Assembly: GCA_963755715.1 (NCBI GenBank)
Contig: CAVWLW010000032.1
Coordinates: 32,001-96,000, forward strand
Direction: 5' to 3'
DNA: 64,000 bases
Origin: an uncultured delta proteobacterium
GTDB taxonomy: Bacteria; Desulfobacterota; Binatia; UBA9968
A program made the position numbers and the translations under genes. Shown here one piece after another: positions 2,521 through 52,284 of the stretch (positions are counted from its first letter, which is position 1; every line of letters begins with the position of its first letter). The notes below the pieces were generated by a model, which was given only the letters and a program-made list of their open reading frames with translations, was not told where the DNA came from and did not search any database.

Positions 2521-3675
2521 TGCCGAGCATCTTTGACGTCGCCATCATCGGCGCCGGTCCGGCGGGCTCGGCCACCGCCATTGCGTTGGCGCGCAGCGGT
2601 TACGCCGTTGTTTTGATCGATAAGCAAATATTCCCCCGAGAAAAGCTCTGCGGTGATTTCGTCAACCCGATCAATTGGCCGATCTTTCGCGATCTGGGCG
2701 TGGAAGAGCGCCTGCTGGCGCAACCGCACACCCGCGTGACGGGTTTTCGCATTACCTCGTATTGCGGCGCGAGCGCGGCAGCAACATTTTCCCAGGTGGA
2801 CCAAAACCGATCTTTCGGTCTCGGACTCAGACGCGCGCAACTGGACCACGTGCTGCTGCAACGGGCCGAGGAAGCCGGAGTCACGATCCGCACCGGGCAG
2901 CGAGTCCAGCAGATTTCAAAACATTCGAAGGAATGGCAGTTGGACATGGGCGCGGGAGAAAGCTGGCGCGCTAAAATTCTCGTCGGCGCCGATGGACGCA
3001 ACTCCTGGGTTGCCCAACAGCTCGGCATGAACACGCGCGCCGCGATGCGCGGCCGGTCCGTCGGTTTCCAAACGCGCATCCATGGCTCGGGCGGCAGCGA
3101 CGGGCAAATCGAGATCCACCTCTTCCCGGGAGGCTATGCGGGTCTGGTCGGCGTCGGCGATGGCACGGCCAGTCTGGGACTTGCCATCGATAAACGCATT
3201 CTCCCGCGTGTTGGCGTAGATGAATTTTTGCGGACCGAGCGTCTAGCGAAAAATCCGTATCTCAAATCGGTTTTAGCGCCGCGCGAGAAAGTCCATGGGT
3301 TTCGCGCCGCCTATCCCGTCTACTTTCCCAAGCGACGTTCTTTTGCCGACGCCGTTGTTCTTGTCGGCGATGCGGCGCGAGTCACCGAGCCGATAACGGG
3401 CGAGGGAATTTATTTCGCGATGCGGAGCGGCATGCTCGCCGCGGAAACGCTCGATCGGGCGCTGCGCCAAGGCGATCTGTCCGCTAATTATCTTCGGGCC
3501 TACGAGCAAACCTGTGCACGGGCATTGCGACCGCGCGTGCTGTTAAATTCGCTCCTGCGCTTCGCTATCTACCGGCCGGCGCTGGTCCATCCGCTGATTC
3601 GTTGGTCCGCGCAGGAATGATCGTCTATTGACCACTCTCGTCGATGCCGTCTGTGTCCCCGCAACAGCGCGCTGA
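2520..3675 (+). CDS. NAD(P)/FAD-dependent oxidoreductase, geranylgeranyl-reductase-like (probable frameshift near 3612)
   Basis: DVAIIGAGPAGS, FPREKLCG, VGADGRNS and LVGDAA..EPITGEGI motifs. ATG at 2520 overlaps the upstream stop. The ORF stops at 3620 but an alternate frame continues to 3675. Confidence 0.85.
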
Positions 3676-3760
3676 TCCGGTCGCACCGACGCCCGCCGCA
3701 AGTTGTTATTCTCCGAGAACTAAATACAATGGCGCGGTGCTCATCTCGATCGGTAGCGTC

Positions 3761-3850
3761 CGTCATGCCGGTGAAAACCGGCATCCAGGAATTATTGTAG
3801 GGGCGTATGGCATACGCCCTTCCTGGATTCCGGCCTGCGCCGGAATGACG
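3761..3850. repeat. Composite REP-like palindromic element (CGTCAT-type arms enclosing a GTAGGGGCG-type hairpin)
   Basis: cgtcatgccggtgaaaaccggcatccagga ... gtaggggcgtatggcatacgccct ... tcctggattccggcctgcgccggaatgacg. Confidence 0.8.
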
Positions 3851-3930
3851 ACCATAGAAGTCGATTCATAGTTGACAGGACGATAACCCTCGCCTTTTCA
3901 AACGGGGTGTGCGCGAGAGGTAATTTCAGA

Positions 3931-5602
3931 ATGACTGCGGAATTTACTCCCGAAGAACAAGCGCGCCTTGCGCCGTTTTTTACCAATCTCGATCGTTCGA
4001 CGTTCGGCTTGAAATTGCCCCAGGAGGTCGCCGGCGCCTTGTTCTCGCGCTACAGCCGCTCGACGAAAAGTCTGCGGCGAACTTTCCTCGATGAATTTCT
4101 CGGCGATCCGACGCTTGGATTAAGCGATCTCCTTTCCGGACAAGCCGAGCCCGCAGCCGACAGCACGGCATTGAAAAAAGCGCGAGCGTTTTACGAGCGC
4201 GTGTTGGTCGGTTACGGCGACGATTCGGTCGCGCAGTTGGGCGGCGCTCATCTGGCCTGCGAAAATATTTCCAACGTCGCCGCCAAACTGCTCGAAGACG
4301 CGCGCATCGGCATCGCGCCGCTGGAAAAATCGACGCGCTATGTGCGCTTCGATCAGAAGGACGCGGCCGGGAATTATCTCTTCTACCGCGAGCCCAAGAT
4401 CATGGCGTCGCGCCACCGCGACGCTTATCTCGAAGTCATGAATCTGCTCTTCGACACTTACTCGCGGCAGATGGAGCCGATGCTGGCGTCGATTGCCAAG
4501 GCGCTGCCCATCGAGCAAGTGGAGGTGCGCGATCCGAGCAGCGGTAAATCCCTGAGTTACAGCGAAGCGCAGAAAGATGATCGACTGCGGCGCTGGGCGG
4601 AGACCGCCTATCGCGCCACCGTGCGCGCCCATGCGTGCGACGTGCTGCGCAGTTATCTGCCGGCTGCGACCTTGACCAACGTCGGCATGTTCGGCGTCGG
4701 CCAGGCGTTCGAATATCTAATCAGCAAATTCTACTCGCATGAGCTGAGCGAAGCGCAGGAACTTGGCCGCGCGATGCACGGCGAGCTGAATCAGCTCATT
4801 CCGTCGTTCGTCAAGCGCGCGCAGTTGAATGAGTATCTCGTTGGCACGACGGCGGCGGCAAAGGTGCTGGCGGCAAAGGCCGTTAATGTTTCACCGTGCG
4901 ACGCCAAAGAACCGGTGACGCTGATCGACTACGACGCCCAAGCCGAAGAGAAAACCATCGCGGCGATTCTGTACTCGCACGCGCGTCAGCCGTTGATGCA
5001 GCTGCGCGAGATCGCCGCCAAGATGAGCGATGAAGATCGTCGCAAGATTCTCAAAGAGTTTTTTAGCAAACGCCGCCACCGCCGCGACAAACTCAGCCGC
5101 GCTTTCGAGAACGTTTATTACACCTTCGATATCCTCGGCAATCTCGGCCTCTATCGCGATCTGCACCGCCATAGAATTCTTACCCAGGAGCGCCAGGACT
5201 TCACCACCGTGCACGGCTACGACACGCCGCCGGAGATCGAAGAGGCGGGTTTCAAGAGCGAGTTCGACGATTGCATGAAGCGCGCGGCGGATTTGTACGA
5301 GCGGATTTACGCCGATCTGCCGAGCGAAGCGCAGTACGTCGTGCCGTTCGCCTACAAGATCCGCTGGTACATGAAGATGAATCTGCGCGAAGCGCTGCAC
5401 ATGTGCGAGCTGCGCACGATGCCGCAAGGTCATCCCGGACTATCGTTTCATCTGCCAGGAGATGTGGCGCAGGATTCAGGAAGTTCATCCAGCGTTGGCG
5501 GAGTGCGGCAAGTTTATCGATTGGAAAAAATATCGGTTGGGACGGTTGCAATCAGAAATGCGGACGGAGTTTAAGAAATCGGCGTTGAAAAAGGGAGAAT
5601 AG
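3931..5602 (+). CDS. thyX: FAD-dependent thymidylate synthase, two-ThyX-domain type (one extra base at about 5434-5437)
   Basis: ALFSRYSRS, GYGDDSVAQL, EKSTRY, RDLHRHR and ELRTMPQGH motifs. The corrected C-terminus GHPDYRFICQEMW...EFKKSALKKGE* ends at TAG 5602. The indel is supported by the intact copy at 6917-7090. Confidence 0.88.
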
Positions 5603-5824
5603 ACCAACCGGTGAAGTTGCAAGACAGTAAATGCCAATGCAACGTGCCCATTCTGTTTTGCGCCCCTGAAGGCTGATGGTTTCTGGGCCTGAGTGGGCAA
5701 TTTCGCAGGCAGCGTCTGCGAAATCCAATTTACGTTGCGGTCAATACGAGTGTTTGTTCCAAGCCTGCGTTACCATAATAGGATTCTATGTTTTCACAAA
5801 AATATCTGCTTAGAAACTTTATTG

Positions 5825-5855
5825 TTGCGCATTTGCGCAATTGAGCAAACATGCG
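5825..5855. promoter_or_regulatory. Operator-like repeat 1 (imperfect palindrome TTGCGCAATTGAGCAA) upstream of the ArsR gene
   Basis: ttgcgcatttgcgcaattgagcaaacatgcg, repeated with 2 mismatches at 6171-6201. Confidence 0.65.
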
Positions 5856-5867
5856 GTAAAGGGCGGC

Positions 5868-6167
5868 ATGGACGAAAAGGTCTATTGCCAGTCGCGTCTT
5901 TGCCGCCTCATGGGTAACCCGATCGCTTTCGCCGTCGTCGATGCGCTCAGTCAGAATAAAGAACTAACCCCGAGCGAGATCGCGCACGCCGTTGGCCGCA
6001 GCGTGTCGCGAGTGAGCCACGTCTTGGCGTCGTTACGGTTGGCAGAGGTCGTCCGTTATGACACCGACGGGCGACAGGCGCGCTACCGCTTGAAACATCC
6101 TCGGGAAACTCGGGACCTTCTGAAGGCCCTCGCATCATTCATCGACTTGTCCTCGGCGTTTCAGTGA
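5868..6167 (+). CDS. ArsR/SmtB-family winged-helix regulator
   Basis: LMGNPIAFAVVDAL...LTPSEIAHAVGRSVSRVSHVLASLRLAEVVRYDTDGRQARYRL matches the ArsR pattern. Confidence 0.8.
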   Translation: MDEKVYCQSRLCRLMGNPIAFAVVDALSQNKELTPSEIAHAVGRSVSRVSHVLASLRLAEVVRYDTDGRQARYRLKHPRETRDLLKALASFIDLSSAFQ

Positions 6168-6170
6168 CAT

Positions 6171-6201
6171 TTGCGGACTTGCGCAATTGAGCAAACATGC
6201 G
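6171..6201. promoter_or_regulatory. Operator-like repeat 2 downstream of the ArsR gene
   Basis: ttgcggacttgcgcaattgagcaaacatgcg, 29/31 identical to 5825-5855 and followed by GGAGG. Confidence 0.65.
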
Positions 6202-6563
6202 TGTTCCCGGTGGGAGGAGCAGCAAGAGAATCTCCACGCACGAACGAACTGCAAACTGTAGAAATCAAAACTCAGTGTGTTCTTGAACGTAAGTCCGGTG
6301 ACTATGATGCCTTAGCCGAGCCGGTGGCGTCTACGTCGGTATCTCGCCCATAGCCCGGCGACCGGGTTTTCACGCTACCCGAGGTCGTTCAAGGAACAAC
6401 CGTGAGCACCGCGCAACCGTCAACCGCAAAGTCCTGGAATGCAGAATCGTGCATTGGCCAACAGCAGCACCGCGATTGTCTTTGATCCACGTCCCAGAGG
6501 CGGCCATAGAGCCACTCTCGTTTTGGCTTGGCGGACGGTCCGGCGAATGGTAATTTCTATGCG

Positions 6564-6884
6564 ATGAAAACGAGTATTGATCACGCCGGCAGATTGTTGA
6601 TACCTAAGGAAATTCGTCGGAAGTCCGGCATCAAGCCAGGAATGCCGCTTGAGGTGCGTTGGGAAAAAGGTGCCATCGCCATTACTCCGGCTCCATTACC
6701 AGTGAAGCTGCGAAGGCGAGACCGACTGCTGGTAGCGATTCGGCGCAAGAATGGCCCATCTCTTTCCACCAAGACCGTCAACTTAACCCGCAAGGCACAG
6801 CGCAAAGATTTTTGGCGACTTGTCGACCGTGCCCACAAAAGAGGGGGAAAAGAAAGGGTTTACCAAGCTCGACGATCTACCTGA
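6564..6884 (+). CDS. AbrB/MazE/SpoVT-family DNA-binding protein (orphan antitoxin-like)
   Basis: MKTSIDHAGRLLIPKEIRRKSGIKPGMPLEV swapped-hairpin motif. No PIN or other toxin gene follows. Confidence 0.8.
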   Translation: MKTSIDHAGRLLIPKEIRRKSGIKPGMPLEVRWEKGAIAITPAPLPVKLRRRDRLLVAIRRKNGPSLSTKTVNLTRKAQRKDFWRLVDRAHKRGGKERVYQARRST

Positions 6885-6916
6885 GTAAGAATCGCAGCCC
6901 AAAAGACGCCGCCGTC

Positions 6917-7090
6917 GGTCACCCCGACTATCGTTTCATCTGCCAGGAGATGTGGCGCAGGATGCAGGAAGTCCATCCAGCGTTGGCGGAGTGCGGCAAG
7001 TTTATCGATTGGAAAAAATATCGGTTGGGGCGATTACAGTCAGAAATGCGGACGGAGTTTAAGAGGTCAACAATTGAGAATAAAGCATAG
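6917..7090 (+). repeat. Duplicated thyX 3' end (copy 2), without a start codon or promoter
   Basis: Encodes GHPDYRFICQEMWRRMQEVHPALAECGKFIDWKKYRLGRLQSEMRTEFKRSTIENKA*. Direct repeat of 5428-5602. Confidence 0.95.
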
Positions 7091-7220
7091 TTGAGCGGTA
7101 GTTATGAAGGTTGCAATATTCTCGTTGCTCGGTGAGTTGTGGACCCGGTAGGGGGATTGGATTGTTTATTTGTCCAGGCCTGACCTTGGCGACCTGACCG
7201 AAGGGGAAAATCATGACAAA

Positions 7221-7952
7221 TCAGCTCTTGATCTTGCCCAGAATGTGAAGGATCTGAAGTCTGAGTGGTTTGGGAAAGGTAAGCTGACCGGCCTGGAACC
7301 TGCCAAAGCAGAAGTTAAAAATTGATAGGAAATCGTGACGCAAGGTTTGTGAAGTGTGGTGTTGATGGAGGGCGCGCAGCGCCGGGCCATGGCAATTCCG
7401 GACTTTGACTGCGCTCCCACACGGACAGGTGTGATGGCCACGATAACCCCACTCGAAAAGGAAAATTATGACGGCCAGCGCCACCAATTCATCGGCCAGG
7501 TGCAGCGTGTCAATGTAGTGTTGGACGATTCCCTCCTGCCCGTGCGCCTGTTCAGCGAAAGGATGCTGACCATGCTGTTTCCAATAGCAGTAACCGTACA
7601 AATAGGGAATGACCAGCCGGTTTACAAAACCGAGCAGTGAAGGTTGTTCGAAGAAAATCCGTCGTTCCTCCACTGGGACGGCCAGACAAAGCGACCCGTC
7701 ACTATAAATGTGTGGATAACTGCGCTCGATTCTGCCCGCGGTCTCTCTTACCCGCGGCAACATGTCTGGAAAGACAGGGGGGATGCGCAATTCGATCTCG
7801 AACTTATCCGTAACCGTTTCGAGTCCGTCGGCCGATGCTTCGAACGGCAGGCTTCCAGAGAGCAACGTTTCATGTTCCAGTTCGGTAAGGTTCGTGAGGC
7901 CCCGATAAATTTCCATTAGCTCGGCGAGCTGCCTCGTCATCTCCTCGGTCAC
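7221..7952 (-). CDS. Prokaryotic E2 (ubiquitin-conjugating-like) protein with C-terminal SEC-C-like Zn motif; CBASS accessory
   Basis: FEIELRIPPVFPDMLPRV...PHIYSDGSLCL (E2 HxxxxGxxC catalytic Cys) and CPCGS....RNCH. GTG at 7952 overlaps the CD-NTase stop (GTGA). Confidence 0.75.
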   Translation of the reverse strand: MTEEMTRQLAELMEIYRGLTNLTELEHETLLSGSLPFEASADGLETVTDKFEIELRIPPVFPDMLPRVRETAGRIERSYPHIYSDGSLCLAVPVEERRIFFEQPSLLGFVNRLVIPYLYGYCYWKQHGQHPFAEQAHGQEGIVQHYIDTLHLADELVALAVIIFLFEWGYRGHHTCPCGSAVKVRNCHGPALRALHQHHTSQTLRHDFLSIFNFCFGRFQAGQLTFPKPLRLQILHILGKIKS

Positions 7953-9153
7953 CCGGCCCTCCAAGGCTTGGCGGCGCCTGTGATGTGGATGCGAGGGGGA
8001 CTGTCGATCAGGGTTTCAGTCGGAACGACGATCTCAAAATTCTTCGAGACGACCGTCGCACCCAAAGCGCTGGATAAGTGTTTCTTCAGCTGGCTCGGAT
8101 TGGCTTCTCTCAGGATCTCAATAACGTCTTTCTGCAAGGCCCCCAACCATAAGAAGAAGGCGCGAGCGCGGGCGTGGCTATCCTCGTGCCAGCGGTCGGC
8201 AAAATTTTCTGCGGGGTTAACAGGGTTTCCGATATACCATTTCCCGTCCGGTGTTCTCTTGATCAGTCCCATCGACGAGAGAGAACGGTCAATTGCCTTA
8301 CCCTCAATGAGGCCCGCGTGTGCACCAAGTTTTTCGACAATACCGCATAGCGCCGAGTAGACATCCGTTTCATTCCCGTATAAATGCGCCGACAACGTCG
8401 TGATGATGATTGAAATCGGCGCGTATATACAAGGCGCTCTTGGTGATTGAAGCGCGAGTCCAGGTAGCGTTTCATGATCTGGATTGCGCGTTGCAGCGGT
8501 GTGCGTACCAATTGGTCGGGAACTTTGTCGATACTTTCGTAAATGTATGGGATTTGCCGCTGGATGACCCGCTTGTTCGAACACGACCTGCTCAAATGCC
8601 GCGGCATTTTTCCAGTCGAACCAGCTTCCGTAGCCTCTGGGATTGCTTACAGACCAGATATAGGAGGAATCCTTCTTGTTCGTAATTGCGATCGATGTGT
8701 CCGCATTATCGCGGAGATCAGGAACTCCGGGCAGAATGTCCAGGTGAAAGCCGACACCGTCCTGCTCGGCGTATTCCAGCGTCCAGCACCGCCGGCCTTC
8801 TGCGTCAAGCGTTTTCAGCGTAAGTCCCGTGTTCGCGGAGCCTGTTGCCGACCATGGAGTTGACCAACTGTGGATCGGTCCGCTCTTTTGCAGGGGTATT
8901 TCGCAGACGAGGTCGATGTCGTAGCTTGCCTCCAAGCCATCTCGGATGGCCTCACTACCGTTCCCAGCCGGAAAAGAACCCTGTCACGATAAGATGCTCA
9001 ACTCACCGGAGCGGCCAGGATGTTCCCGTCCTCCAGCCATGCACCAACTGTGTTGTACCGGTCCACCGCGTCCTGATATTTGCCGGGCGGGATATCAATC
9101 TCGGCGGCGACCTGCTCAAGAAAACGCGAATACTTTCTTAAATCGATCGTCAT
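7949..9153 (-). CDS. cGAS/DncV-like nucleotidyltransferase (CD-NTase) of CBASS; several indels
   Basis: Stitched frames: MTIDLRKYSRFLEQVAAEIDIPPGKYQDAVDRY..., QGSF-RLGTVVRP, YDIDLVC, RRCWTLEY, FHLDILP, SNPRGY..WF, RTPLQRAIQIMKR, PISIIITTL, NPVNPAENFADRW, ending KPWRAG*. GAGG RBS before ATG 9153. Confidence 0.88.
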
Positions 9154-9179
9154 AATGTTAACCTCGCACTCTATTGATC

Positions 9180-10196
9180 TTAAGACTTAGTTGCTGTGTC
9201 CAGCACATAGACGGGTTCAAATGCCTCGGCCGGCTCCTTAAGAACGCCAGATCGAGCGCAGGGGTGGCGGTCGCGAGCCAATGAATACCCAAGGCCCTTG
9301 AGGTCCTGAATTAATCGCCAGTCGTCCATCTTATATGTGTTGTAGGGGACGATATGGTTTATACGGTGTATGGCCGTGCGCTCATGTTCGTGGCCGGTGG
9401 CGAGCTTTGCGATACCCATGGCCCCGTGGGACTGCCCGTCCATGAAAAGCTTTACGAGCTTCGTGCCGAGCGTTCCGATCCCAGCCGATTTCGGAACGGC
9501 TAGGTTTCTTCAAGGCAACCGAGGCTCAGGATGTGCAGGGAATCCCGTGACAGCCGAGGAGCGTCACGGCCTCGACAACGGCGAGATCGATCGGATTGTT
9601 CGCCCAAATGCCGCCATCCAAGAGCCCAACACCGTGCTCTGTAATGTGTTGTGGAAAATATGTCGGTGCCGCGGCGGTCGCGAGCGCGATGTCAACGGCG
9701 AACGACTTGTAATCGTTTCTGAGGCGCGGGTGATGCGCCGTCTTGTAGATATACACAGATTGGGCAACGGGGTTCAGCGGGGATGACAAGTCGGGTTTTC
9801 GCGTCACCGAGCCTTTTTCGCCGAGCACATCATGGAGAACGGTGCGCAGAGGTGCTGGGTCATGCTTCCTCCGATACACCCAGCGGAGCGCGCGCAGATT
9901 TCGGCAAAGATAGTCGGCCACCGGGCGGTCGCCACCGAAAATCTCCGGGCCACGTTGTTCGTAAAGGTCCAGGAGATAAGAGAGGCCGAAAGGTTCATAT
10001 TCAAGACCAATAGCGATGATTCCGCCGGTTGAGGTCCCTGCGATCAGATCGAAATAGGAGACGATCGGGCGATTGAGATGTTGTTCGAGAGCGGCTAGAA
10101 AGGCCGCAGGGAATGTCTGAGAATGCCGCCGCCGTCGATGCACAGTATGCGGCGTTTTGCGGGCTCACCGTCGTTTTCAATTCCACTTAACTGCAC
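9180..10196 (-). CDS. Patatin-like phospholipase (CapV-like CBASS effector); several indels
   Basis: Stitched frames: RRILCIDGGGI, FDLIAGTSTGGIIA (GxSxG), ATAAAPTYF, LLDGGIWANNP. The C-terminal part is ORF 9180-9443. Confidence 0.85.
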
Positions 10197-10321
10197 CGAT
10201 TTTCTGCTTCTCACCACCTGAAGTTTGCGGCTAGGCCTCACTTGTGCAATCATGTTTCAGAGATGATACAATCCGTCGAATCGAATGTCAAACAGGTTTT
10301 CACATATGAAACGGAGGCCCC

Positions 10322-10688
10322 ATGTCCAAGCTAACCTTGCAAATTCTCGGCAGGAGGTTGGCAGAAAAGCGAAAGTCACGAGGCATTAGAGAGGTCGCCA
10401 AGAAATCGGTGTTAGTCCGGCGACATTGTCCGAATTGAGCGAGGCTATGTCCCTGATATAGAAACATTCGGTAAGGTTTGCCGGTGGATGGACGTCGATC
10501 CCGGTGAGATCTTAGGAGTAAAGCCGAAGGTGGCTAGTAAACCGAAAGCCGCTGTTCACTTTAAGAAGGATCAAACTTTGCAAATCGAAACTGCACAAGC
10601 TCTCGCTCAAATGATTCTCGCAGCCCAGCGCGCCATGATGGCTTCTGAGGGACAAGAGAATAGGCCGCTGTGTTGGTCCGGGGTTTAA
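10322..10688 (+). CDS. XRE-type HTH regulator (CapH-like); indels
   Basis: MSKLTLQILGRRLAEKRKSRGIREVAK..GVSPATLS..ERGYVPDIETFGKVCRWMDVDPGEILG...AQALAQMILAAQRAM. Divergent from the CBASS operon. The 3' end is uncertain. Confidence 0.7.
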
Positions 10689-11274
10689 AAGCTGGTGTGA
10701 AAATGTCTCCGTTCACCTGCGAAAGGACTTGGGGCTTATACCTAGCGCACCTCTAGACGTGAAAGCCTTGGCGGAGTGGCTGCATATAGAAATATGGACT
10801 CCTCACCAAATTCCTGGGCTTGAGTCGAAATGGACGCATGTACTTCTTAAGAAAGATCCCGATGCCTGGTCGGCAGTCACATTAGCCATAAACTCCAAGA
10901 ATTTGATTATTTTGAACTCTTCTCATTCTAAAGCACGTCAAGCAAGTGACCTGACGCACGAACTATCTCATATCTTGATAGGCCACGAGGCTGGTCGGGT
11001 AGATATCTCACCGGACGGGTTGTTGATGCTGAACACTTACAATAGAGACCAGGAGGATGAAGCAAATTGGATGGCGGGGTGCTTGCTCTTGCCAAGAGAA
11101 GCCTTGGCGGTTGCTATAAAGCAACAGGTCGACTTCGAGATTACAGCAAAAAAATACGGAGTGAACCGTGAGATGCTACGTTGGCGGCTTAACGTAACCG
11201 GCGTGCAACGTCAGTTTGCACGAGGGCATAACAGGGCTCTGGGGTCTAACTTCCTAGGTCCCGACGCTGATTAA
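10673..11274 (+). CDS. ImmA/IrrE-family Zn metallopeptidase (CapP-like)
   Basis: (R)GFKSWCENVSVHLRKDLGL N-terminus, HELSH (HExxH) and EDEANWMAGCLLLP. The start needs a 1-nt correction. Confidence 0.85.
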
Positions 11275-11478
11275 CGACGGAGCAGGGCTATTCAGGTAAA
11301 TGTGGCAATGAAACGTTCTTATCGACTTTTGATAGAGGGCCTGGCTTTTGAATCTCATCATTTCCAACAATCAAAAAGAAAGATTTGAGACAGCATCGAA
11401 AGATTCGACACTAACAGCTACTATAAAGAAATTTTGACCTGAAACGTATTCCCCGTACCGAGACCGAGTAGGGACGCC

Positions 11479-12495
11479 ATGACAGTTCGCATTGCCCAGT
11501 TCGTGCACGCCACCCACGATGTGGTGGACGAAGCTTTCCTGCGGGAATTTCCTGAAGTCGAGGCGGTGAAGGCCAATAACCTCGAAGCCCTGTCCGATGC
11601 GCTCGCCGGGGCGGAAATCTTCCATGTCTACAATTCCGCCTTTACACCGGAGTTCGCGAAGCTCGTGCGCGACAAGGGTCGTGCGCTGAAGTGGATTCAG
11701 TTCACGACCGTAGGCATCGATGTCGCGCTGAGAGTGGGACTGCCCGACGGCGTTTGGGTCACGAATTCCGGCGATGTGAGCCAGCGGGTGCTGGCCGGGC
11801 ACGCCATCGCCCTGATGCTTGGCGTGATGCGGGGATTCCGTAGATTCGAGCCGCTGCGTGCGCGGCATGATTATGCGCGGCAGAGCTTGCCCCGCTACAT
11901 GGTCGCGCCCGATGGCGCGCGCATGGTGATCCTCGGCATGGGCCGCATCGGTCAGGACATCGCGCGCAAGGCCAAGGCATTCGACATGGAGGTGATCTGC
12001 GTCACCCGCGCGCCCGCTCCCGCCGTGCCCGAGATCGACCGCGTGGTGCCCCGGGAAAAGGTGGACGAGGTGCTTCCTACTGCCGACGCGGTAATGATCG
12101 CGATGCCGCTCGACGCCGGCACTCAAGGATTTTTAAGCGCGGCAAGAATCGCGCTCATGAAAGAGACGGCTATCCTGGTAAATATCTCCCGCGGCAAGGT
12201 GGTGGACGAAGCCGCTCTGGCCCGCGCCCTCGCCGAAGGCCGCATCATGGGGGCAGGGCTCGACGCTTTCGCCAAAGAACCGTTGCCCGCGGATAGTCCG
12301 CTCTGGGATCTCCCCAACGTGCTGATGACGCCCCATGTCGGCGGTAACGGCGGGCGCGAATTGTGGCGGCGGATGAGCGAACTTGTGCGCGACAACACGC
12401 GCCGCTATCTTTCGGGTGCGCCGCTCAAACACGTAGTGAGAACACCCGATGGGACGCTTCAAGGTTTTGAAAACCCGCAGGCTGGCAACTCATAG
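11479..12495 (+). CDS. D-2-hydroxyacid dehydrogenase family protein
   Basis: ILGMGRIG, LVNISRGKVVDE, LDAFAKEPLP..SPLW and MTPHVGG. Confidence 0.9.
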   Translation: MTVRIAQFVHATHDVVDEAFLREFPEVEAVKANNLEALSDALAGAEIFHVYNSAFTPEFAKLVRDKGRALKWIQFTTVGIDVALRVGLPDGVWVTNSGDVSQRVLAGHAIALMLGVMRGFRRFEPLRARHDYARQSLPRYMVAPDGARMVILGMGRIGQDIARKAKAFDMEVICVTRAPAPAVPEIDRVVPREKVDEVLPTADAVMIAMPLDAGTQGFLSAARIALMKETAILVNISRGKVVDEAALARALAEGRIMGAGLDAFAKEPLPADSPLWDLPNVLMTPHVGGNGGRELWRRMSELVRDNTRRYLSGAPLKHVVRTPDGTLQGFENPQAGNS

Positions 12496-12521
12496 TGGGT
12501 GAATCTGAGGTCGAGAGTTTT

Positions 12522-12725
12522 ATGCGAAAGACCAAAACCACTCGCTACGACGTTGCCGAACACCTGCGAACACCGGAGGAAATGGCGGCATATCTTGAGG
12601 CTTGCCTCGATGAGGCAAAAGGAGATGCCGCCTTTATAGCCAAAGCTCTCGGCGATATTGCACGCGCCCGCGGCATGACGCAGGTGGCGCGTGACACCTT
12701 TCGGTTTCAAGCATTGGCACGCTGA
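12522..12725 (+). pseudogene. Truncated addiction-module antidote (HI1420-like HTH)
   Basis: YDVAEHLRTPEEMAAYLEACLDEAKGDAAFIAKALGDIARARGMTQVARDT, then the sequence breaks before the HTH recognition helix. No toxin gene upstream. Confidence 0.8.
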
Positions 12726-12805
12726 GGCGGCTGAGAGGTAATTAAGAGTCGTGCCGGAGCGTTGCACTGCTGCCTGGCGTGGGAATGGAAAGGGGAAACG
12801 AAAAC

Positions 12806-13468
12806 ATGATCGACGAAAGCTATAACGCAATCAAAAACGATTTCATCATGGCGCTTCGGATCATTTACCGTGAGGGACTGAGCGACGCGTTTGCTCATCT
12901 CAGCCTGCGCAGCAACGAGGGCGATGAAATGATGTTCATGCCGCGCAAGAGTCCGGCTATAGTCAAGAGCGAGGAATTGTTTTTTGTCGACTTCGATAAA
13001 TCCGTGCCGCAGTCTTCCTTGCACCAGGCGATCTATAAAGCCCGTCCCGATGTCAAAGCGGTTTTTCACTTCCACTCGCCGGCGGTGGTTCTGCTGAGCG
13101 TCGTCGGCCAAACCATTCGGCCGATGCATAACTACAGCGCGATTTTCTACGAAGGCGTGCCGCTCTATACCGGAACGGGGCAGGTCGAATCGCCGGCGCG
13201 GGCCGGGGAAATGGCCAAGTTGCTCGGCAACGCCAAGGCGTTGATGCTGCGCGGACACGGCGCCGTAGTCGTCGGACAGTCGATTCGTGAGGTTTGCATC
13301 TTGGCGCTTTTCTTAGAGGAGTCGGCGCGGCTGCAAACCGAAGCGATAAAACTGGGTACGCCGATGTTTATGGAGCGCGACGAAGCCGAGAAGATCGCCA
13401 AGCGAACCTTCAAGCCGACCTCCGTCGAACGTGCTTGGGACCATTTTGTCGCGAAATACGCCGATTGA
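12806..13468 (+). CDS. Class II aldolase/adducin family protein
   Basis: AFAHLSLR, LHQAIYKARPDVKAVFHFHSP and LMLRGHG. Confidence 0.88.
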   Translation: MIDESYNAIKNDFIMALRIIYREGLSDAFAHLSLRSNEGDEMMFMPRKSPAIVKSEELFFVDFDKSVPQSSLHQAIYKARPDVKAVFHFHSPAVVLLSVVGQTIRPMHNYSAIFYEGVPLYTGTGQVESPARAGEMAKLLGNAKALMLRGHGAVVVGQSIREVCILALFLEESARLQTEAIKLGTPMFMERDEAEKIAKRTFKPTSVERAWDHFVAKYAD

Positions 13469-13573
13469 TTTTGTTGTTCGGCCGGGCAGCCCGATCTCAT
13501 CGACTGGAAATGGTCGGTTAATATCTCTCTCGGGGATGGTTGAAAATCCCTCGCCTTCAGGCGAGTGAGAGTT

Positions 13574-13602
13574 CGTCATGCCGGCGAACGCCGACATCCA
13601 GG
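13574..13602. repeat. REP-like half element (CGTCAT type)
   Basis: cgtcatgccggcgaacgccgacatccagg, same family as 3761-3790. Confidence 0.65.
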
Positions 13603-13610
13603 TTCGTTTT

Positions 13611-13754
13611 GGAAAACTATACCGGCGCGCCGGCAATTACGAAAAGGCTAAGACGCAGCTCGCCAACGGCGTTGCAATGATGCGCGAGATGGAGATGGGA
13701 CTGTGGCTGCAAAAGGCTGAGGCTGAGTTGAGGGAACTAGAATCATTCCGTTAA
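13611..13754 (+). pseudogene. Remnant C-terminal TPR-like tail of a large adenylate-cyclase/AAA-TPR-type protein
   Basis: GKLYRRAGNYEKAKTQLANGVAMMREMEMGLWLQKAEAELRELESFR*, with no start. Abuts the REP half element. Confidence 0.55.
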
Positions 13755-13789
13755 CCAGACACCCTGTTGAAATTCTGCTTGGCCTAAAA

Positions 13790-13906
13790 ATGAAGCGCAA
13801 TGTGCGGGAAGTCGGTTCGAGCTGGAATGCGGCGAATTTATTGACTCGAAAAACTACCGGCTTGGGGCGGTTGCAATCCGAGATGCGCACGGAATACAAG
13901 AACTAA
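13790..13906 (+). repeat. Decayed thyX 3' end (copy 3)
   Basis: gaatgcggcgaatttattgactcgaaaaactaccgg(c)ttggggcggttgcaatccgagatgcgcacggaatacaagaactaa reads ECGEFIDSKNYR-LGRLQSEMRTEYKN*, versus ECGKFIDWKKYRLGRLQSEMRTEFKK in thyX. Confidence 0.9.
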
Positions 13907-13930
13907 AATTTGAATAACAAAGGGACAAAT

Positions 13931-14926
13931 ATGAAATGCCGGCTTACCTTGATGGCCGCCTTGACCGTATCGCTCTGCTTCATTCGCGCTTCGATGGCGC
14001 CGGCCCAAGTTGCGAGAATCAAAGTCGGCTACTCCTCGATCGGTGTCGGCCAGTCGCTCGTCTGGGTTGCTAAAGAGGCGGGGCTTTTCAAGGAGAACGG
14101 GCTCGATGTGCAGCTTATTTTTATCGGCAGCTCGAGTATCCTGACTCAAGCCGTGATCGCCGGCGACGTGCCGATCGCGATCATGTCCGGCACGGCGGCG
14201 ATCGGCTCGCAATTGGCGGGATCGGACGTTGTCATGGCTGCGAGCACAAAAAAAGATCCAGCCCAGGCATTTCTGGTCACCGCAAAAGGAATTTCACAAC
14301 CCGCGCAGCTCAAGGGGAAAAGACTGGCGGTGAGCCGGCTCGGCGCATCTTCGGATTTTATCCTCAGGTTGATTCTCAAAAAGATCGGCTTAGTGCCGGA
14401 CAAAGACGTGGCGATTGTGCAGATCGGCTCTTCGCCGGTCAGAATGGCCGCCTTGGTCAATGGCGCCGCCGATGGCACGGCGCTGACCTTCGAAGAGATG
14501 ATGGTGGCCAAGAAAATGGGTTTTAACGTCATGCTCAACCTCGTGGAGTTGGGTGTCGAATCGCTAAACAGCGACGTCGTGACGACGCGAAAATTTATGC
14601 GGGAGTCGCGGGAAACCGTCCAACGGTTCATCAAGGGCATGATCAAAGGAGTGAGTTTCTTCGCCGCCAATAAAAAATTTTCCATGGATGTTATTGCCCG
14701 CTACACCAAGAGCAACGACACGGAAAAGATCGAATATGGCTATGACTATGCGGCAAAAATCTTTCTCAGGAAGCCTTACCCGCCGATCAAGGGAATCCAA
14801 CTCGCCCTCGAAGAGATCGGCGAAAGAACTCCCGCGGCGAAGACAGCGAGTCCGGAGCAGTTTATCGACATCTCTATCGTAAAAGAGCTCGATCAGAGCG
14901 GCTTTATCGATGCGCTTTACAAATAG
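13931..14926 (+). CDS. ABC substrate-binding protein, NMT1/THI5/SsuA-like
   Basis: Signal peptide, VAKEAGLFKENGLDV, LKGKRLAV and ELDQSGFIDALYK. Confidence 0.85.
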   Translation: MKCRLTLMAALTVSLCFIRASMAPAQVARIKVGYSSIGVGQSLVWVAKEAGLFKENGLDVQLIFIGSSSILTQAVIAGDVPIAIMSGTAAIGSQLAGSDVVMAASTKKDPAQAFLVTAKGISQPAQLKGKRLAVSRLGASSDFILRLILKKIGLVPDKDVAIVQIGSSPVRMAALVNGAADGTALTFEEMMVAKKMGFNVMLNLVELGVESLNSDVVTTRKFMRESRETVQRFIKGMIKGVSFFAANKKFSMDVIARYTKSNDTEKIEYGYDYAAKIFLRKPYPPIKGIQLALEEIGERTPAAKTASPEQFIDISIVKELDQSGFIDALYK

Positions 14927-14941
14927 AATCGGAGAAGATCT

Positions 14942-15941
14942 ATGCGGCTTGCGGTCAGATTAACTAGCGTCATTCTCGGACTGCTGCTTGCGCCAGTGGT
15001 AGCTTCGATTGCCCGCGCGGCGTCGGTGCCCCAGAAAGCGACCTTCACTTACGGCGGCTTGAATGAACGCAGCGGTGTGCTGTTCGTCGCGCGCGATGCG
15101 GGGATTTTTCAGAAGCATGGCTTGGACGCGACGATCGTCAATGTGCGTAATGCGCAGGTCGGCATGTCGGCGCTCGCCGGAGGGGAGACTCAGTTCCACG
15201 TCGGGCTCGGCCACGGGTACCTCTATCGGAGCCATGGCGGGCGGTCTCGATCTCGCTTTTATCGCGGGGCTGATCAATAAGCTCGACGGCGCGTTTGTCG
15301 TCAATTCGAGCATTCGTTCTCCGGCGGATCTCAAGGGCAAACGGATCGGTATTCAGAGCATCGGCGGCGGTGTTTGGATGTTTACCATGCTCGCCTTCGA
15401 TCACTGGGGGCTCGATCCCGATCGCGATAAGATTCAGTTTCGCATCCTCGGCGACCAATCGGTGCAGGCCCAGGCGATCGCCCAGAACGTTATCGACGGC
15501 GGGTATCTCAGCTATTCCTACGGCGCGCAGTTGGAGCGCCAGGGATATCGAATCATGGCCGACCTGATAAAGATGGGCATTCCGTATCAGGGCCTGGGCG
15601 TCATGGCGAAGCGCAGCTTGATCGACAAAAATCCCGAACTACCGGAGCGAGCGCTGCGGGCGCTGGTGGAGACGATCACTTTCGTCAACAATCCGGCTAA
15701 CAAGAACGTCGTGGTGAAATCTCTGGTGAAAGAGCTCCGGCTAACGAAAGTCGAAGATGCCCAGGCCGGTTATGAAATGATGCGGGTGCTTTTTGAAAAG
15801 CGCATCTATCCCAATGTTGACGGTTTGCGCAACGTCATTCGCCTCCTCGGTCGTACCAGCGAGCCCATCCGCAAGCTCAAGGTCGAGGACATCATCGACG
15901 ACCGCGTGGTGCGGAAGTTGGAAAAGGAAGGGCTCTTCTAG
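14942..15941 (+). CDS. ABC substrate-binding protein, NMT1/SsuA-like (frameshift near 15205)
   Basis: ORFs 14942-15280 and 15063-15941 join. VARDAGIFQKHGLD, DLKGKRIG and KLEKEGLF. Confidence 0.8.
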
Positions 15942-17565: not shown

Positions 17566-19315
17566 ATGCCCGCACGTTACGGTTCCGATCTGGTCGTCGA
17601 TCTGCTCAAAATTCTTGGCATCGAATATGTCGCGCTCAATCCCGGCTCGAGCTTTCGCGGCATTCACGATTCTCTGGTCAATTACGAGAGCGGCCGCACG
17701 CCGAATCCCGAAATGATTCTCTGCTGCCATGAAGAGATCGCCGTGGCGGTGGCGCACGGCTACGCCAAGGCGACGGGCAAGATCATGCCGGCGATCGTGC
17801 ACAACGTCGTCGGTCTGCAGCACGCCTCGATGGCGATCTACAACGCCTGGTGCGATCACACGCCGGTGATGGTCATGGGCGGCACCGGGCCGATGAACTC
17901 CGCCAAACGCCGTCCCTGGATCGACTGGATTCACACGGCGCAGGTGCAGGGCAATCTGGTGCGCGATTTCGTCAAGTGGGACGATCAGCCGGTGGGCATC
18001 GAGGCGTTTCCGTCCTCGATCATGCGCGGCTATCGCATCGCCATGAGCGATCCGGGCGGGCCCGTGTATCTTTGCTTCGACGTCACCGATCAGGAGGCCG
18101 CGATCGAAAAAGAAATTCCCCTGCCCGATCCGAAGCGTTTCCGCCCCGCGGCGCCGCTGCAGGCGGACTACGATGCGATCAAAGAAGCGGCGCAGTTACT
18201 CGCGTCGGCGCAAAACCCGGTGATCCTCGCCGACTATGTGGGGCGGAACAACGACGCGGTGTTGAGCCTGGTGGCCCTCGCCGATCTGCTGTCGATTCCG
18301 GTCATCGATCTCGGTGCGCGCTTGAATTTCCCCAACACGCATGCGCTCAATCTCACCGGCAGGAATCGCGAGCTGATCGCCAATGCCGACGTGATCATGG
18401 GTCTCGACGTCACCGATCTTTACGGCGCGCTGGTGCGCACGGATCCCAACACGCACGCCAACGTTCCCGCGACCAAACCCGGCTGCAAAGTGATCAACGT
18501 CACGCTCAAAGATATCGTAGTGCGCGGCTGGACCAGCGACTTTCAGGAGCTGGCGCCGGTGGATTTGCCGATCGTCGCGAATACCCGAGTTTTTCTCCCG
18601 CGCTTTGGCCGAAGAGATCAGGAAGCAGGGAAAATTTTCCAAGAGCGTCGTCGATGACCGGCGCAAGGCAATGGCGGCGCAGCATGAAGAAGTCCATGCG
18701 CGCTGGCAAGCCGATCTCAAGAAGCGCTGGGACGAGCGGCCGATCGCGCCGCCGCGTTTAGCCTGGGAAATTTGGGAAGCATTAAAAAAAGAAGATTGGC
18801 TGCTGGTGGCTGGCGCTTTTCGCGGTTGGCCGAGCCGTCTGTGGACTTGGGACAAGCCCGGTCTCTTTCTCGGCGGCTACGGCGGCGGTGGTTTGGGTTA
18901 TGGTCCGGCGGCATCGGTCGGCGCGTCGCTGCCCTACCGCGGCACGGGCAAGATCTGCGTCAATCTGCAGCGCGACGGCGAGATGCTTTACACGCCGAGC
19001 GCCCTGTGGACTGCGGCGAATACCGGCGTGCCGTTCTTGACGATAATGACCAACAATCGGGTTTATTATAACGACGTGGAGCATCAGGAAAAAGTTGCGA
19101 TCCACCGCGGCCGGCCGGTTGAGAACAAACTCGTCGGTATGGAAATGGCCAAGCCCCCGGTCGACTTTGCCAACTTGGCCCGCTCCTTCAGTCTTCACGG
19201 CGAGGGACCGATCACCGAACCGGAGCAGATTCGTCCGGCGGTGGAACGGGCGATCAAGGTCATCAAAGAAGAAAAACGACCGGCCTTGGTCGATGTGTAC
19301 ATGCAGATGGTGTGA
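17566..19315 (+). CDS. Thiamine-pyrophosphate-binding enzyme (acetolactate synthase/benzoylformate decarboxylase family; frameshift near 18600)
   Basis: LNPGSSFRGIHDS, HEEIAVAVAHGYAKATG, GGGLGYG and DGEMLY...NNRVY TPP motif. Confidence 0.88.
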
Positions 19316-27319: not shown

Positions 27320-28292
27320 TTATGTCGATACTGCGTAGACTTGATCGTCGCTGTCGTCTTGCTGTGGGCCAAGGAGATGACAGCGCGAATTCGGCGGCTT
27401 TCTCGACAAGCTCGCGTGCTTCGCTTTCGATCGATTCAAGTTGCTTTGTCTGTAATCATCTTTCTTGCTTTCAGCGCACGGGCGACACGCGCGATGGGAT
27501 CTCTTCTTTTTCCATTCGGCGAGCTGCGACAACTCGCGATATTTTGCCGGGTCGCCTTCGTAGTGGCCGCGCATGCGGTGCGTCAAGCATTCGACGAAAA
27601 TCGGTCCTTTGCCGGCGCGGCATTGCTCACGGCTTTCTCATCGCTTCGCGCACGGCGAAGAGGTCGTTGCCATCGACGGTGCTGGCCGGAATCCCGTAGG
27701 TCTTCGCATGCTGCGCCAAGCGTTCAATTTTCGTGTGCGCCGACAGCGGCGTAAACTCGGCGTAGCCGTTGTTCTCACAGACGAAGATGACCGGTAACTT
27801 CCAGAGGCTGGCGATATTAAGCGACTCGTGAAACGGCCCGGCTTGACCGGCGCCGTCGCCGAAAAAAACCACGGCAACTTGATGTTTCTTCCGTTCTTTG
27901 GCCGCAAAGGCTGCGCCTAAGGCAAGCGGAATCGTGCCGCCGACAACGCCGGTGGCGGTGATGAAGCCGGTTTCTTTGGCGACGATATGCATCGAGCCGC
28001 CTTTGCCACCGCAATAGCCGGTGGCACGGCCGGCGATTTCGGCCATGAGCTTGTTGATATCGGCGCCCTTGGCGATGGCATGGCCGTGCGAGCGATGACC
28101 GCCGAAGACATAATCGTCATTCTCCAGCAAGCTGCAGACACCGACCGCGACGGCTTCTTGGCCGATGCCCAAATGCAGCAAGCCGACGATCTGACGCTCG
28201 GCGTAAAGCGCCGAGGCTTTTTCCTCGAAGGCGCGAATGAGCCACATGCGGCGCAGCAAGGCGATAAGGTCGGAAGAATTTTTTTTAGCCAT
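27320..28292 (-). CDS. 2-oxoacid/acetoin dehydrogenase E1 alpha subunit (frameshifts in the 3' third)
   Basis: HLGIGQEA, HRSHGH, GKGGSMH, FGDGA...ENN and THRMRGHYEGDP. Confidence 0.9.
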
Positions 28293-52237: not shown

Positions 52238-52284
52238 CGGAAACGACACAGATAAAGTTCACGCCAGGTCGATTGGAGAATCGA

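Follow-up and report, generated by a model that had tools for sequence, protein, structure and literature searches.

How does a gene come to be followed by further copies of its own 3' end when no integrase lies beside it? The question is raised by thyX, the only thymidylate synthase gene of an uncultured delta proteobacterium of the Binatia (assembly GCA_963755715.1, here genome G000), within a stretch of 64,000 nucleotides (nt) of contig CAVWLW010000032.1, positions 32,001 to 96,000, which we call the window and number from its first letter. Integrases, or exchange between two conserved flanks, are the usual explanation of insertion hotspots and defence islands. In the window the 3' end of thyX is present three times, and we regard this stretch as a recombination hotspot at that gene end. 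The best reading, to which we give a probability of about 0.55, is a homology-anchored, integrase-free insertion with displacement of the end of a housekeeping gene. What is new is end displacement at such a gene, recurrent across a bacterial family, together with signs of a general route of gene gain in G000.

Three 3' ends of one gene

The body of thyX, which codes for the long ThyX form of about 560 amino acids (aa), lies at 3907-5436 on the forward strand and keeps its frame through the Gly-His-Pro codons (5428-5436). As assembled it belongs to an open reading frame (ORF) at 3907-5574 that matches the Pfam profile Thy1 (E = 4.4e-36) over profile positions 1-169 of 191; the remainder of the profile sits in the +1 frame, owing to an extra base at 5437, and in relatives (L040) the match runs through position 191. 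This is the sole Thy1 match in the 7.4-Mb, 76-contig genome, and a search of the 93.6%-complete genome for thyA (PF00303) found none. The thyX genes of relatives are 82-90% identical to that of the window. Within the middle of the gene, at 4700-5040, identity to the metagenome contig L078 is only 52-83%, otherwise 90-100%, and it is low against genomes G012 and G015 too; this part is a linker that varies or else a patch that was recombined within thyX.

The 3' end, taken as the last 58 codons as in relatives, occupies three places, all on the forward strand. Tail 1, the resident end, lies at 5428-5602 (stop TAG at 5600-5602); tail 2, a displaced end whose frame is still open, at 6917-7090 (stop TAG at 7088-7090); and tail 3, decayed and with a broken frame, at about 13790-13906 (stop TAA at 13904-13906), directly upstream of an NMT1-type binding protein gene at 13910-14926. 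When tail 1 was used as a query against the whole assembly, these three places alone were recovered (E = 3e-91, 8e-61 and 5e-12), and the other 15 matches had E values of 0.34 or more.

Tails 1 and 2 are 95% identical over 143 nt (5434-5576 against 6922-7064), and a shared lead-in, GGTCAY CCC, sets the limits of the tails. Counted from the GAC codon (5438 and 6926), there are six differences in the first 46 codons, all at third positions and with a single residue change (I/M), and a seventh third-position change affects the His codon just 5' of it (CAT/CAC). The last eight codons differ at 13 nucleotides, with the TAG stops in the same register, and divergence thus leaps from about 4% to about 50% at 5576/7064, a jump that is a recombination breakpoint and not gradual drift. 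Tail 3 is detectable at 13824-13902 (80% identity, E = 4.6e-12), with a weak extension back to about 13790 and indels that break the frame, and it marks a still older insertion. An earlier, sequence-only reading of this stretch had described the three copies, the near-synonymous divergence of the first two, their differing 8-residue ends with a TAG at the same position, and the decay of the third, and all of these descriptions hold. It had also taken copy 2 for a once-working thyX end; divergence confined to third positions fits tail 2 having been such an end, or equally having been copied from one.

Recurrence among relatives

All 123 genomes of the order were scanned with the tail protein, and we counted extra tails lying downstream on the thyX contig. 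In family f1 extra tails are present in 12 of the 64 genomes with a tail match (G000, the window genome, and G004, G007, G014, G065, G071, G077, G089, G091, G107, G112 and G119), in family f2 in one of five, and in family f3 in none of 28. The array genomes carry two to four thyX tails, and in f3 the genes behind thyX are conserved (EthD, CDP-alcohol transferase and a GTPase). Excluded from the arrays were G083 and G052, in each of which two complete genes sit on two contigs; G121, where a frameshift divides a single tail; and G073 and G094, whose orphan tails are on other contigs, with genes for cyclases or binding proteins as neighbours and no integrases. Four genomes flagged as unpublished (G005, G076, G079 and G093), with a single tail each, are part of the tallies. 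At least 15 of 77 distinct metagenome contigs with the tail core hold two or three tails within the 2 kb of flank to which this count is limited. The proposal that the 3' end of thyX is a recurrent insertion point, at which older ends are pushed downstream, is supported by the counts in f1 and in the metagenomes. The check suggested with it, a count of thyX ends in relatives, thus finds extra ends in f1 and f2 and none in f3.

Cassettes of about 0.9-1.5 kb, along with a few longer blocks, separate the tails, and for the most part they encode toxin-antitoxin pairs, nucleases, regulators and defence proteins. Their genes include toxin-antitoxin pairs (PIN/Phd, HigB/HigA, MazE-PIN or MazF), the AAA_14-DUF4143 ATPase, the YhcG nuclease, ArsR regulators, DUF7700, STAND and SIR2 proteins, and giant cyclase-AAA-TPR genes. 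Cargo differs among close relatives, as a second suggested check had asked: the first cassette carries ArsR and AbrB in the window, MazE-PIN in L109, and something else again in L076, L098 and L150. The gene most widely found directly behind a thyX tail encodes the AAA_14-DUF4143 ATPase of 377-388 aa and is itself followed by a displaced tail (L040 451-1584, L042 17470-18603, L065 1575-2708, and also L085, L142 and L144). Recent horizontal mobility of this cassette was considered and rejected, its divergence being equal to that of thyX, with which it is colinear. Decay of the tails had been expected to rise with distance from the gene, and this is not always so: in G004 the third tail is complete, whereas the second is truncated and frameshifted.

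Some further genes behind the tails deserve mention. DUF7700 proteins are frequent there (L062, L085, L089, L096, L102 and L116), and giant genes with zinc-ribbon, adenylate-cyclase, AAA_16 and TPR domains (STAND-like) stand beside thyX tails in several genera (L058 1630-4931, L063 1106-4513 and L068 10174-15942). In G004 (L042, about 6600-9400 downstream of thyX) there is a dCTP-deaminase-like gene together with a 5-hmdU DNA kinase (PF18723, E = 1.8e-95) and MazG with MazG_C, a set that from its families looks like thymidine hypermodification genes next to a thymidylate synthase gene. One Binatia genome has a gene with a phage tail-sheath C-terminal domain 0.4 kb behind thyX (L206 6533-7741).

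No recombinase found, and edges that vary

Integrase, resolvase and transposase families were matched by none of 418 ORFs around thyX tails, drawn from about 150 genomes and contigs. The ORFs comprise 83 of at least 70 aa from 5 genomes (E up to 1e-4); 74 of 103 from 11 further loci, tail ORFs and tail-distant ORFs being left out (E up to 1e-4); 124 of 126 of at least 110 aa from metagenome loci (E up to 1e-5); and 137 of 189, of 170-750 aa, from the 6 kb downstream of thyX in further species (E up to 1e-10), a set that omits eleven loci with the conserved f3 synteny, ORFs longer than 750 aa and 15 loci already examined. In G000, G004, G014, G015 and G077 all matches to PF00589 are far from thyX; G000 encodes 13 of them, none on the 170-kb contig of the window (C32), and comparison of 50 ORFs from the rest of the window with NCBIfam gave no integrase or transposase. 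The absence of such genes that had been noted for the window therefore extends to its whole contig. The tail core pattern had no match in viral contigs.

The repeated unit is 110-250 nt long and its 5' edge varies. Relative to the Gly codon, young displaced tails begin at -85 (L109), -41 (the third tail of G004) and -9 (tail 2 of the window), and older ones begin as late as +60. We had considered a single fixed crossover at the Gly-His-Pro codons, where many tails start in protein alignments, and rejected it on these nucleotide edges, which range from -85 to +60. Conservation at synonymous sites is not raised in the tail: in 10 genomes of the genus it is 0.46-0.72, where the mean of the gene is 0.60, and 11 f3 genomes show a similar pattern. 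An Rfam scan of 3500-15000 with E up to 1 returned no match, and attC-like folding of the three tails gives z from -1.44 to +1.55, significant on neither strand. Many array-linked tails have a longer ending, ...GAATAG and then GCT, that single-copy genes do not have.

The tails recombine independently of their flanks. Compared with the window, contig L076 shows about 95% identity over the thyX body and 93-100% over the ArsR module, but only about 78% over the tail that separates the two; in L078 the tail is 97-100% identical to tail 1. A tail remnant (-60 to +40) also lies in L076, 35 nt upstream of a dehydrogenase gene that in genomes G016 and G019 directly follows thyX, so that the old end is found where displacement predicts it. 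The donor of the incoming end was a close relative: over 46 codons every difference between tails 1 and 2 falls at a third position, up to the sharp break at 5576/7064.

Orphan gene ends across the genome

A comparison of G000 with itself gave 170 local direct repeats of 80-600 nt, 0.4-25 kb apart. We kept those with one copy inside an ORF of at least 200 aa and the other outside any such ORF, which left 60 pairs after removal of duplicates, 23 of them with identity of 85% or more. A 3' fragment lies downstream of its gene in 32 of the 60 (15 of the 23) and upstream in 10 (2 of the 23); a 5' fragment lies upstream, the mirror case, in 8 (4 of the 23) and downstream in 3 (0 of the 23); and the middle of the gene is repeated in 7 (2 of the 23). 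The dominant classes, 3' fragments downstream and 5' fragments upstream, are those that leave the gene intact. The hotspot had been described as anchored at thyX; the site is not peculiar to that gene, as 32 other genes of G000 have an orphan 3' fragment downstream. Genes at 20 such loci include cytochrome c552, an asparaginase (with three end copies), amidohydrolases, binding proteins, an AMP-binding enzyme and an O-methyltransferase, and recombinases are absent from all 122 ORFs at these 20 loci.

An end of a different gene is also repeated in G019 (L058), where the 3' end of the dehydrogenase (1370-1489) is duplicated 6.9 kb downstream (8372-8490 and 9403-9449), with a giant cyclase-AAA-TPR gene and ORFs of no assigned family in the block between. 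Three Ku homologues are encoded in G000 (C9:10188-10727, C30:30495-31046 and C25:157352-157783), one of them with an internal stop; Ku was found in one of 14 control genomes, and G000 encodes ComEC as well. Together Ku and ComEC make end joining and DNA uptake plausible, and nothing more.

Homology-anchored insertion as a proposed mechanism, and its alternatives

What we observe is how the locus is built, that it recurs, that recombinase genes are lacking, that the edges vary, that the tails are mosaic and that the genome as a whole shows the bias; the mechanism that we infer would be as follows. DNA of a related strain would enter carrying a thyX end and whatever lay behind it in the donor, and would be anchored by homologous pairing within thyX. 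Fixation would follow in one of two ways: the fragment, once circularised, would integrate by a single crossover (Campbell type), or its far end would be joined illegitimately. When a circle with a gene end integrates by one crossover, the gene is left intact and a partial copy remains. The incoming end would complete the essential gene, and the resident end, cut at an arbitrary 5' point, would be pushed downstream. Repeated rounds would stack the ends, recombination between tails would later delete cassettes or exchange tail sequence, and displaced tails would erode. No dedicated integrase would be needed, as selection for an intact gene would leave only those events that restore the end. The same process would act at many other genes of G000, and thyX would stand out in being conserved enough to pair across strains and in bordering a variable region. 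We favour homology-anchored insertion over an integrase specific to thyX because recombinases are missing, the repeats are long with variable edges, the incoming end comes from a close relative and the pattern is spread across the genome.

Several observations weigh against this reading. The genome-wide count comes from a single genome without a control, and could be inflated by paralogue families and by frameshifts of assembly; the ten pairs with a 3' fragment upstream are not predicted by the model. Variation of the edges can also arise by erosion, and the tail of the same ATPase cassette begins at -41, -25, -22, +38 and +60 in different lineages. This cassette is 76-80% identical at the nucleotide level, colinear and as diverged as thyX, so its insertion is old and has been inherited vertically. 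The block of the window that holds a cyclic-oligonucleotide-based anti-phage signalling system (CBASS) has no tail on its right side and entered the spacer between thyX and the dehydrogenase without one; not every insertion here duplicates an end, and the hotspot also accepts insertions that do not. The largest set of ORFs searched for recombinases was held to a strict Pfam cut-off (1e-10) and to lengths of 170-750 aa, and the absence of integrase genes in cis leaves room for one that may act in trans. A search for integrases or circles carrying a thyX fragment, which the sequence-only reading had suggested, gave no integrase at the tails, and no circular or empty-site junction was seen in the short contigs of four sequencing runs.

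A broader form of the same reading may be entertained, tentatively and with more doubt than belief. Family f1, and possibly others, would gain genes mainly by integrase-free end displacement: fragments of relatives, bearing a conserved gene's end and strain-specific genes, would be anchored by homology and fixed through a single crossover of circles closed by Ku or through end joining, with stacked orphan ends as the trace across the genome. At thyX the outcome would be an integron-like array of toxin-antitoxin and defence cassettes, its repeat being the coding end of the essential gene, and recombination between tails could release cassettes again as circles of tail plus cargo.

An unlikely explanation, and the one that best survives beside homology-anchored insertion, is that the arrays are what remains of site-specific islands in decay, which arose as cis-mobilisable elements (CIMEs) accreted in tandem. 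Elements with a tyrosine or serine integrase would have used the thyX end as attB and brought a replacement end, and the integrases would since have been lost, or one encoded elsewhere would act in trans. Insertion at a 3' end, with the end restored and elements stacked in tandem, is the textbook outcome of site-specific integration and accretion, and the parts of a review on which we draw (PMC5704250) describe for CIMEs the same conserved gene end as target, the same restoration of the gene and the same stacking, with some elements free of recombination genes. As presented there, these elements have an integrase-bearing origin and att repeats of 8-60 bp, whereas the thyX sites, about 150 in number, have no integrase, and their repeats of 110-250 nt lack a fixed 5' edge, though erosion could blur short fixed repeats. 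The tycheposons of Prochlorococcus, in the portion of their description used here (10.1101/2020.12.28.424599), resemble the thyX arrays in occupying fixed conserved sites, in the pushing of older material inwards by newcomers, in scattered partial copies of the target, there tRNAs, and in cargo for defence and adaptation. A site-specific integrase and hallmark genes of replication define a tycheposon, and its target is a gene for a tRNA or tmRNA; the thyX cassettes have no integrase and no replication genes, and their target codes for protein. The ...GAATAG and GCT ending peculiar to array-linked tails is in favour of such a site, as are the PF00589 matches that G000 encodes elsewhere. Opposed to it are the recombinase-free ORFs at the tails, the distance of PF00589 matches from thyX in all five genomes, third-position conservation that is not raised in the tail, the lack of a viral contig with the tail core, and the 20 comparable loci in G000 that are equally without recombinases.

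It is improbable that nucleases drive the insertions, in the sense that the AAA_14-DUF4143 protein or YhcG (DUF1016) cuts thyX ends without a cassette, that repair from a template copies the cassette in, and that misaligned repair duplicates the tail. Free-standing homing endonucleases spread by cutting alleles that lack them, followed by repair from the template, and DUF4143 presumably belongs to the PD-(D/E)XK clan. The AAA_14-DUF4143 gene stands directly behind a tail in G014, G004, G065, L085, L142 and L144, and YhcG does so in G020, L077 and L145. However, most cassettes (toxin-antitoxin pairs, ArsR, CBASS) hold no nuclease, the ATPase cassette looks vertically inherited, homing alone does not duplicate a flank, the loci elsewhere in the genome are without such genes, and both the nuclease activity and the target of the two proteins are putative.

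Local duplication and decay, by which the extra tails would be leftovers of tandem segmental duplications or decayed paralogues with later insertions between them, is highly improbable. The genome is rich in tandem paralogues (the NMT1, ABC_sub_bind and amidohydrolase families), and in 10 of the 60 pairs a 3' fragment is upstream of its gene, on the side that displacement does not expect. But thyX is single copy, the sequences behind each tail are mutually unrelated, the third-position-only differences between tails 1 and 2 point to two selected alleles and not to a neutral duplicate, and fragments are strongly biased to the 3' end and to the downstream side. Finally, an assembly artefact in which strain variants of the thyX end were chained can practically be dismissed: although the genome is a metagenome bin with 4.2% contamination and likely indel errors, and the frameshift at 5437 resembles a blend of two alleles, the same architecture is seen in 12 other genomes, with contigs of 1.5 and 3.6 Mb among them, and in the independently assembled metagenome contigs, some with three tails, while public contigs from other studies span tail 1 into the block behind it and each tail has unique flanks.

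Inserted genes and the older neighbourhood

The first block behind the resident end (5603-6916, forward strand) holds an ArsR-type regulator (5841-6167) and an AbrB/MazE-type antitoxin without a toxin partner (6528-6884), both assigned by Pfam. A 31-nt direct repeat with the palindromic TTGCGCAA exactly flanks the ArsR gene (5825-5855 and 6171-6201) and recurs in G012 (L045), L076, L078, L098 and L150; it is probably the operator of the regulator, placed in front of both the regulator gene and the unit that follows. Contigs L076 and L078 carry the ArsR module at 91-100% identity, and the AbrB protein is 58% identical to one behind the third tail of G004.

Behind tail 2 lies the CBASS block (7221-11274, mixed strands; PADLOC and Pfam). 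On the reverse strand are the E2 gene (7221-7964, PADLOC E = 1.5e-71), the cyclase in two frames (7949-8935 and 8998-9153, PADLOC E = 2e-56 and 1.1e-08) and a patatin-type phospholipase effector in three pieces (9180-9443, 9526-10143 and 10095-10253, PADLOC E = 7.4e-54 and 1.7e-04, Pfam Patatin); on the forward strand are a small ORF without matches (10488-10688) and a CapP-like ImmA/IrrE peptidase (10729-11274, PADLOC CapP E = 3.1e-11, Pfam Peptidase_M78). With a cyclase, an effector and an E2-like accessory gene, the predicted genes of 7221-11274 would make a CBASS as the system is defined. The E2, cyclase, patatin and CapP-like ORFs had no match at the tblastn cut-off in the 20 kb (in some cases less) downstream of thyX in 20 relatives.

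An older, shared neighbourhood follows at 11454-13789 on the forward strand, recognised by Pfam and synteny. Its genes are a 2-hydroxyacid dehydrogenase (11479-12495), a truncated antidote protein (12495-12725), a class II aldolase (12779-13468) and a TPR fragment (13578-13754), which is a remnant of a giant cyclase-AAA-TPR gene of which the last 58 codons are kept and which is seen whole in G019 and G091. The dehydrogenase adjoins the thyX tail in G016 and G019, the closest genomes of the genus (thyX 90-91% identical), and likewise in contig L076; the aldolase and the TPR piece have counterparts downstream in G015 and G019, and the neighbourhood is common to several metagenome contigs as well. 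Relative to the closest relatives only 5603-11453 (the ArsR/AbrB cassette, tail 2, and the CBASS with its E2 and CapP-like peptidase) is inserted, because thyX directly precedes the dehydrogenase in G016 and G019 and homology to them resumes at 11454. Of the two cargo blocks proposed earlier, ArsR and an AbrB-type antitoxin in block 1 and 7091-13790 in block 2, the second is not one cargo unit, its dehydrogenase, aldolase and TPR fragment being older.

The frameshift at 5437 and the quality of the assembly

A base too many at 5437 (CAT CCC G GAC at 5431-5440, forward strand, against CAC CCC GAC in tail 2) shifts tail 1 relative to the body: as assembled, the thyX body frame (3907-5436) continues to a stop in the wrong frame at 5574, and the conserved tail is read in the +1 frame. 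The insertions had been said each to restore thyX, and in the assembled gene the frame is broken at the junction of copy 1. In three of four public sequencing runs, however, matching contigs omit one letter at 5433 or 5437, and either omission restores the frame (CAC CCG GAC or CAT CCC GAC); L078, the nearest metagenome contig, reads CATCCCGAC at the junction, and the resident tails of relatives are all in frame. The extra base is most likely an assembly or consensus error, because related strains are without it and split genes are scattered through the window.

Among the ordinary genes that are split or truncated are three outside the island, an NMT1-type binding protein (14942-15280 and 15063-15941), a thiamine pyrophosphate (TPP) enzyme (17566-18657 and 18605-19315) and an Opp-type binding protein (52273-53154 and 53108-53818), each split over two frames, and also the PDH E1 alpha gene (27627-28292). 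These point to indel errors of assembly at a rate of about one per 6-8 kb. The splits in the CBASS cyclase and in the patatin effector may share this cause, and public contigs show 2-4 gaps against the window across these two genes; the gene debris reported for the second block may thus in part stem from such errors.

No sequencing run matched more than 0.30 of the sampled words, and the source sample was therefore not found among them; the public contigs come from four runs. These short contigs, in which tail 2 is hardly covered, contain no joint of tail 1 with tail 2 or with the dehydrogenase and no circle junction of block 1, a lack that does not speak against such junctions. Further along, one contig of run X1 connects 12942 back to 11333, possibly from another organism or arrangement, three runs have 98 other letters in place of 12698-12717, and one public contig omits the antidote fragment (12507-12833).

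Comparison with known systems

The closest described process is, by analogy, the displacement of effector 3' ends at type VI secretion system (T6SS) and rhs loci. Kirchberger et al. (2017, PMC5361080), in the part of their account drawn on here, ascribe strings of orphaned 3' regions at these loci to homology-facilitated illegitimate recombination, with no evidence of an integrase. Similar to the thyX arrays, C-terminal displacement at rhs, CdiA and T6SS genes has, in that account, a constant upstream anchor at which a new 3' end and the genes downstream of it are inserted and the old end is shifted back without an integrase. There, toxin domains that vary and are accompanied by immunity genes are what is displaced, and it is the diversity of the ends that matters (PMC5361080, same part), whereas at thyX a conserved portion of a housekeeping enzyme is displaced, the cargo (toxin-antitoxin pairs, regulators, nucleases, CBASS) bears no relation to it and the pattern extends to many ordinary genes. 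The thyX locus thus has the string of orphaned 3' ends without an integrase, and does not have polymorphic toxin and immunity ends.

Homology-facilitated illegitimate recombination (PMC3240628) and insertion-duplication by single crossover, both known from transformation genetics, also use one homologous anchor to bring in non-homologous DNA. Both have been observed in the laboratory and at low frequency, whereas the thyX footprint would represent a route by which a whole bacterial family gains much of its new DNA in nature. Chromosomal integrons share with the arrays the one- or two-gene cassettes, often toxin-antitoxin pairs, that are added at one end with a repeated unit between them; they differ in that no IntI is found beside the thyX array, and that the repeat unit here is coding sequence without the significant single-strand fold of an attC on either strand. 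That thyX had not been known as a target of this kind agrees with a literature search on thyX integration sites and islands, in which, judged from the titles listed, no work treats thyX as a target; a search on genomic islands in Binatota or Binatia found nothing relevant.

Implications

Two practical warnings follow from this window: the thyX frameshift and part of what looks like gene debris are probably errors of assembly, and blocks bounded by repeats are not necessarily single units of cargo. The hotspot sits at an essential gene of an uncultured, widespread soil lineage and has the footprint of site-specific integration, yet no recombinase is present at the sites sampled, and the same footprint appears at dozens of ordinary genes in one genome. 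If homology-anchored insertion is the correct reading, C-terminal displacement would not be confined to the polymorphic toxin loci from which it has been known until now and would add genes quite generally, and orphan gene ends would be a simple marker by which genomes from metagenomes could be scanned for past insertions. It would also give toxin-antitoxin and anti-phage cassettes a route of spread among strains without recognisable mobile elements.

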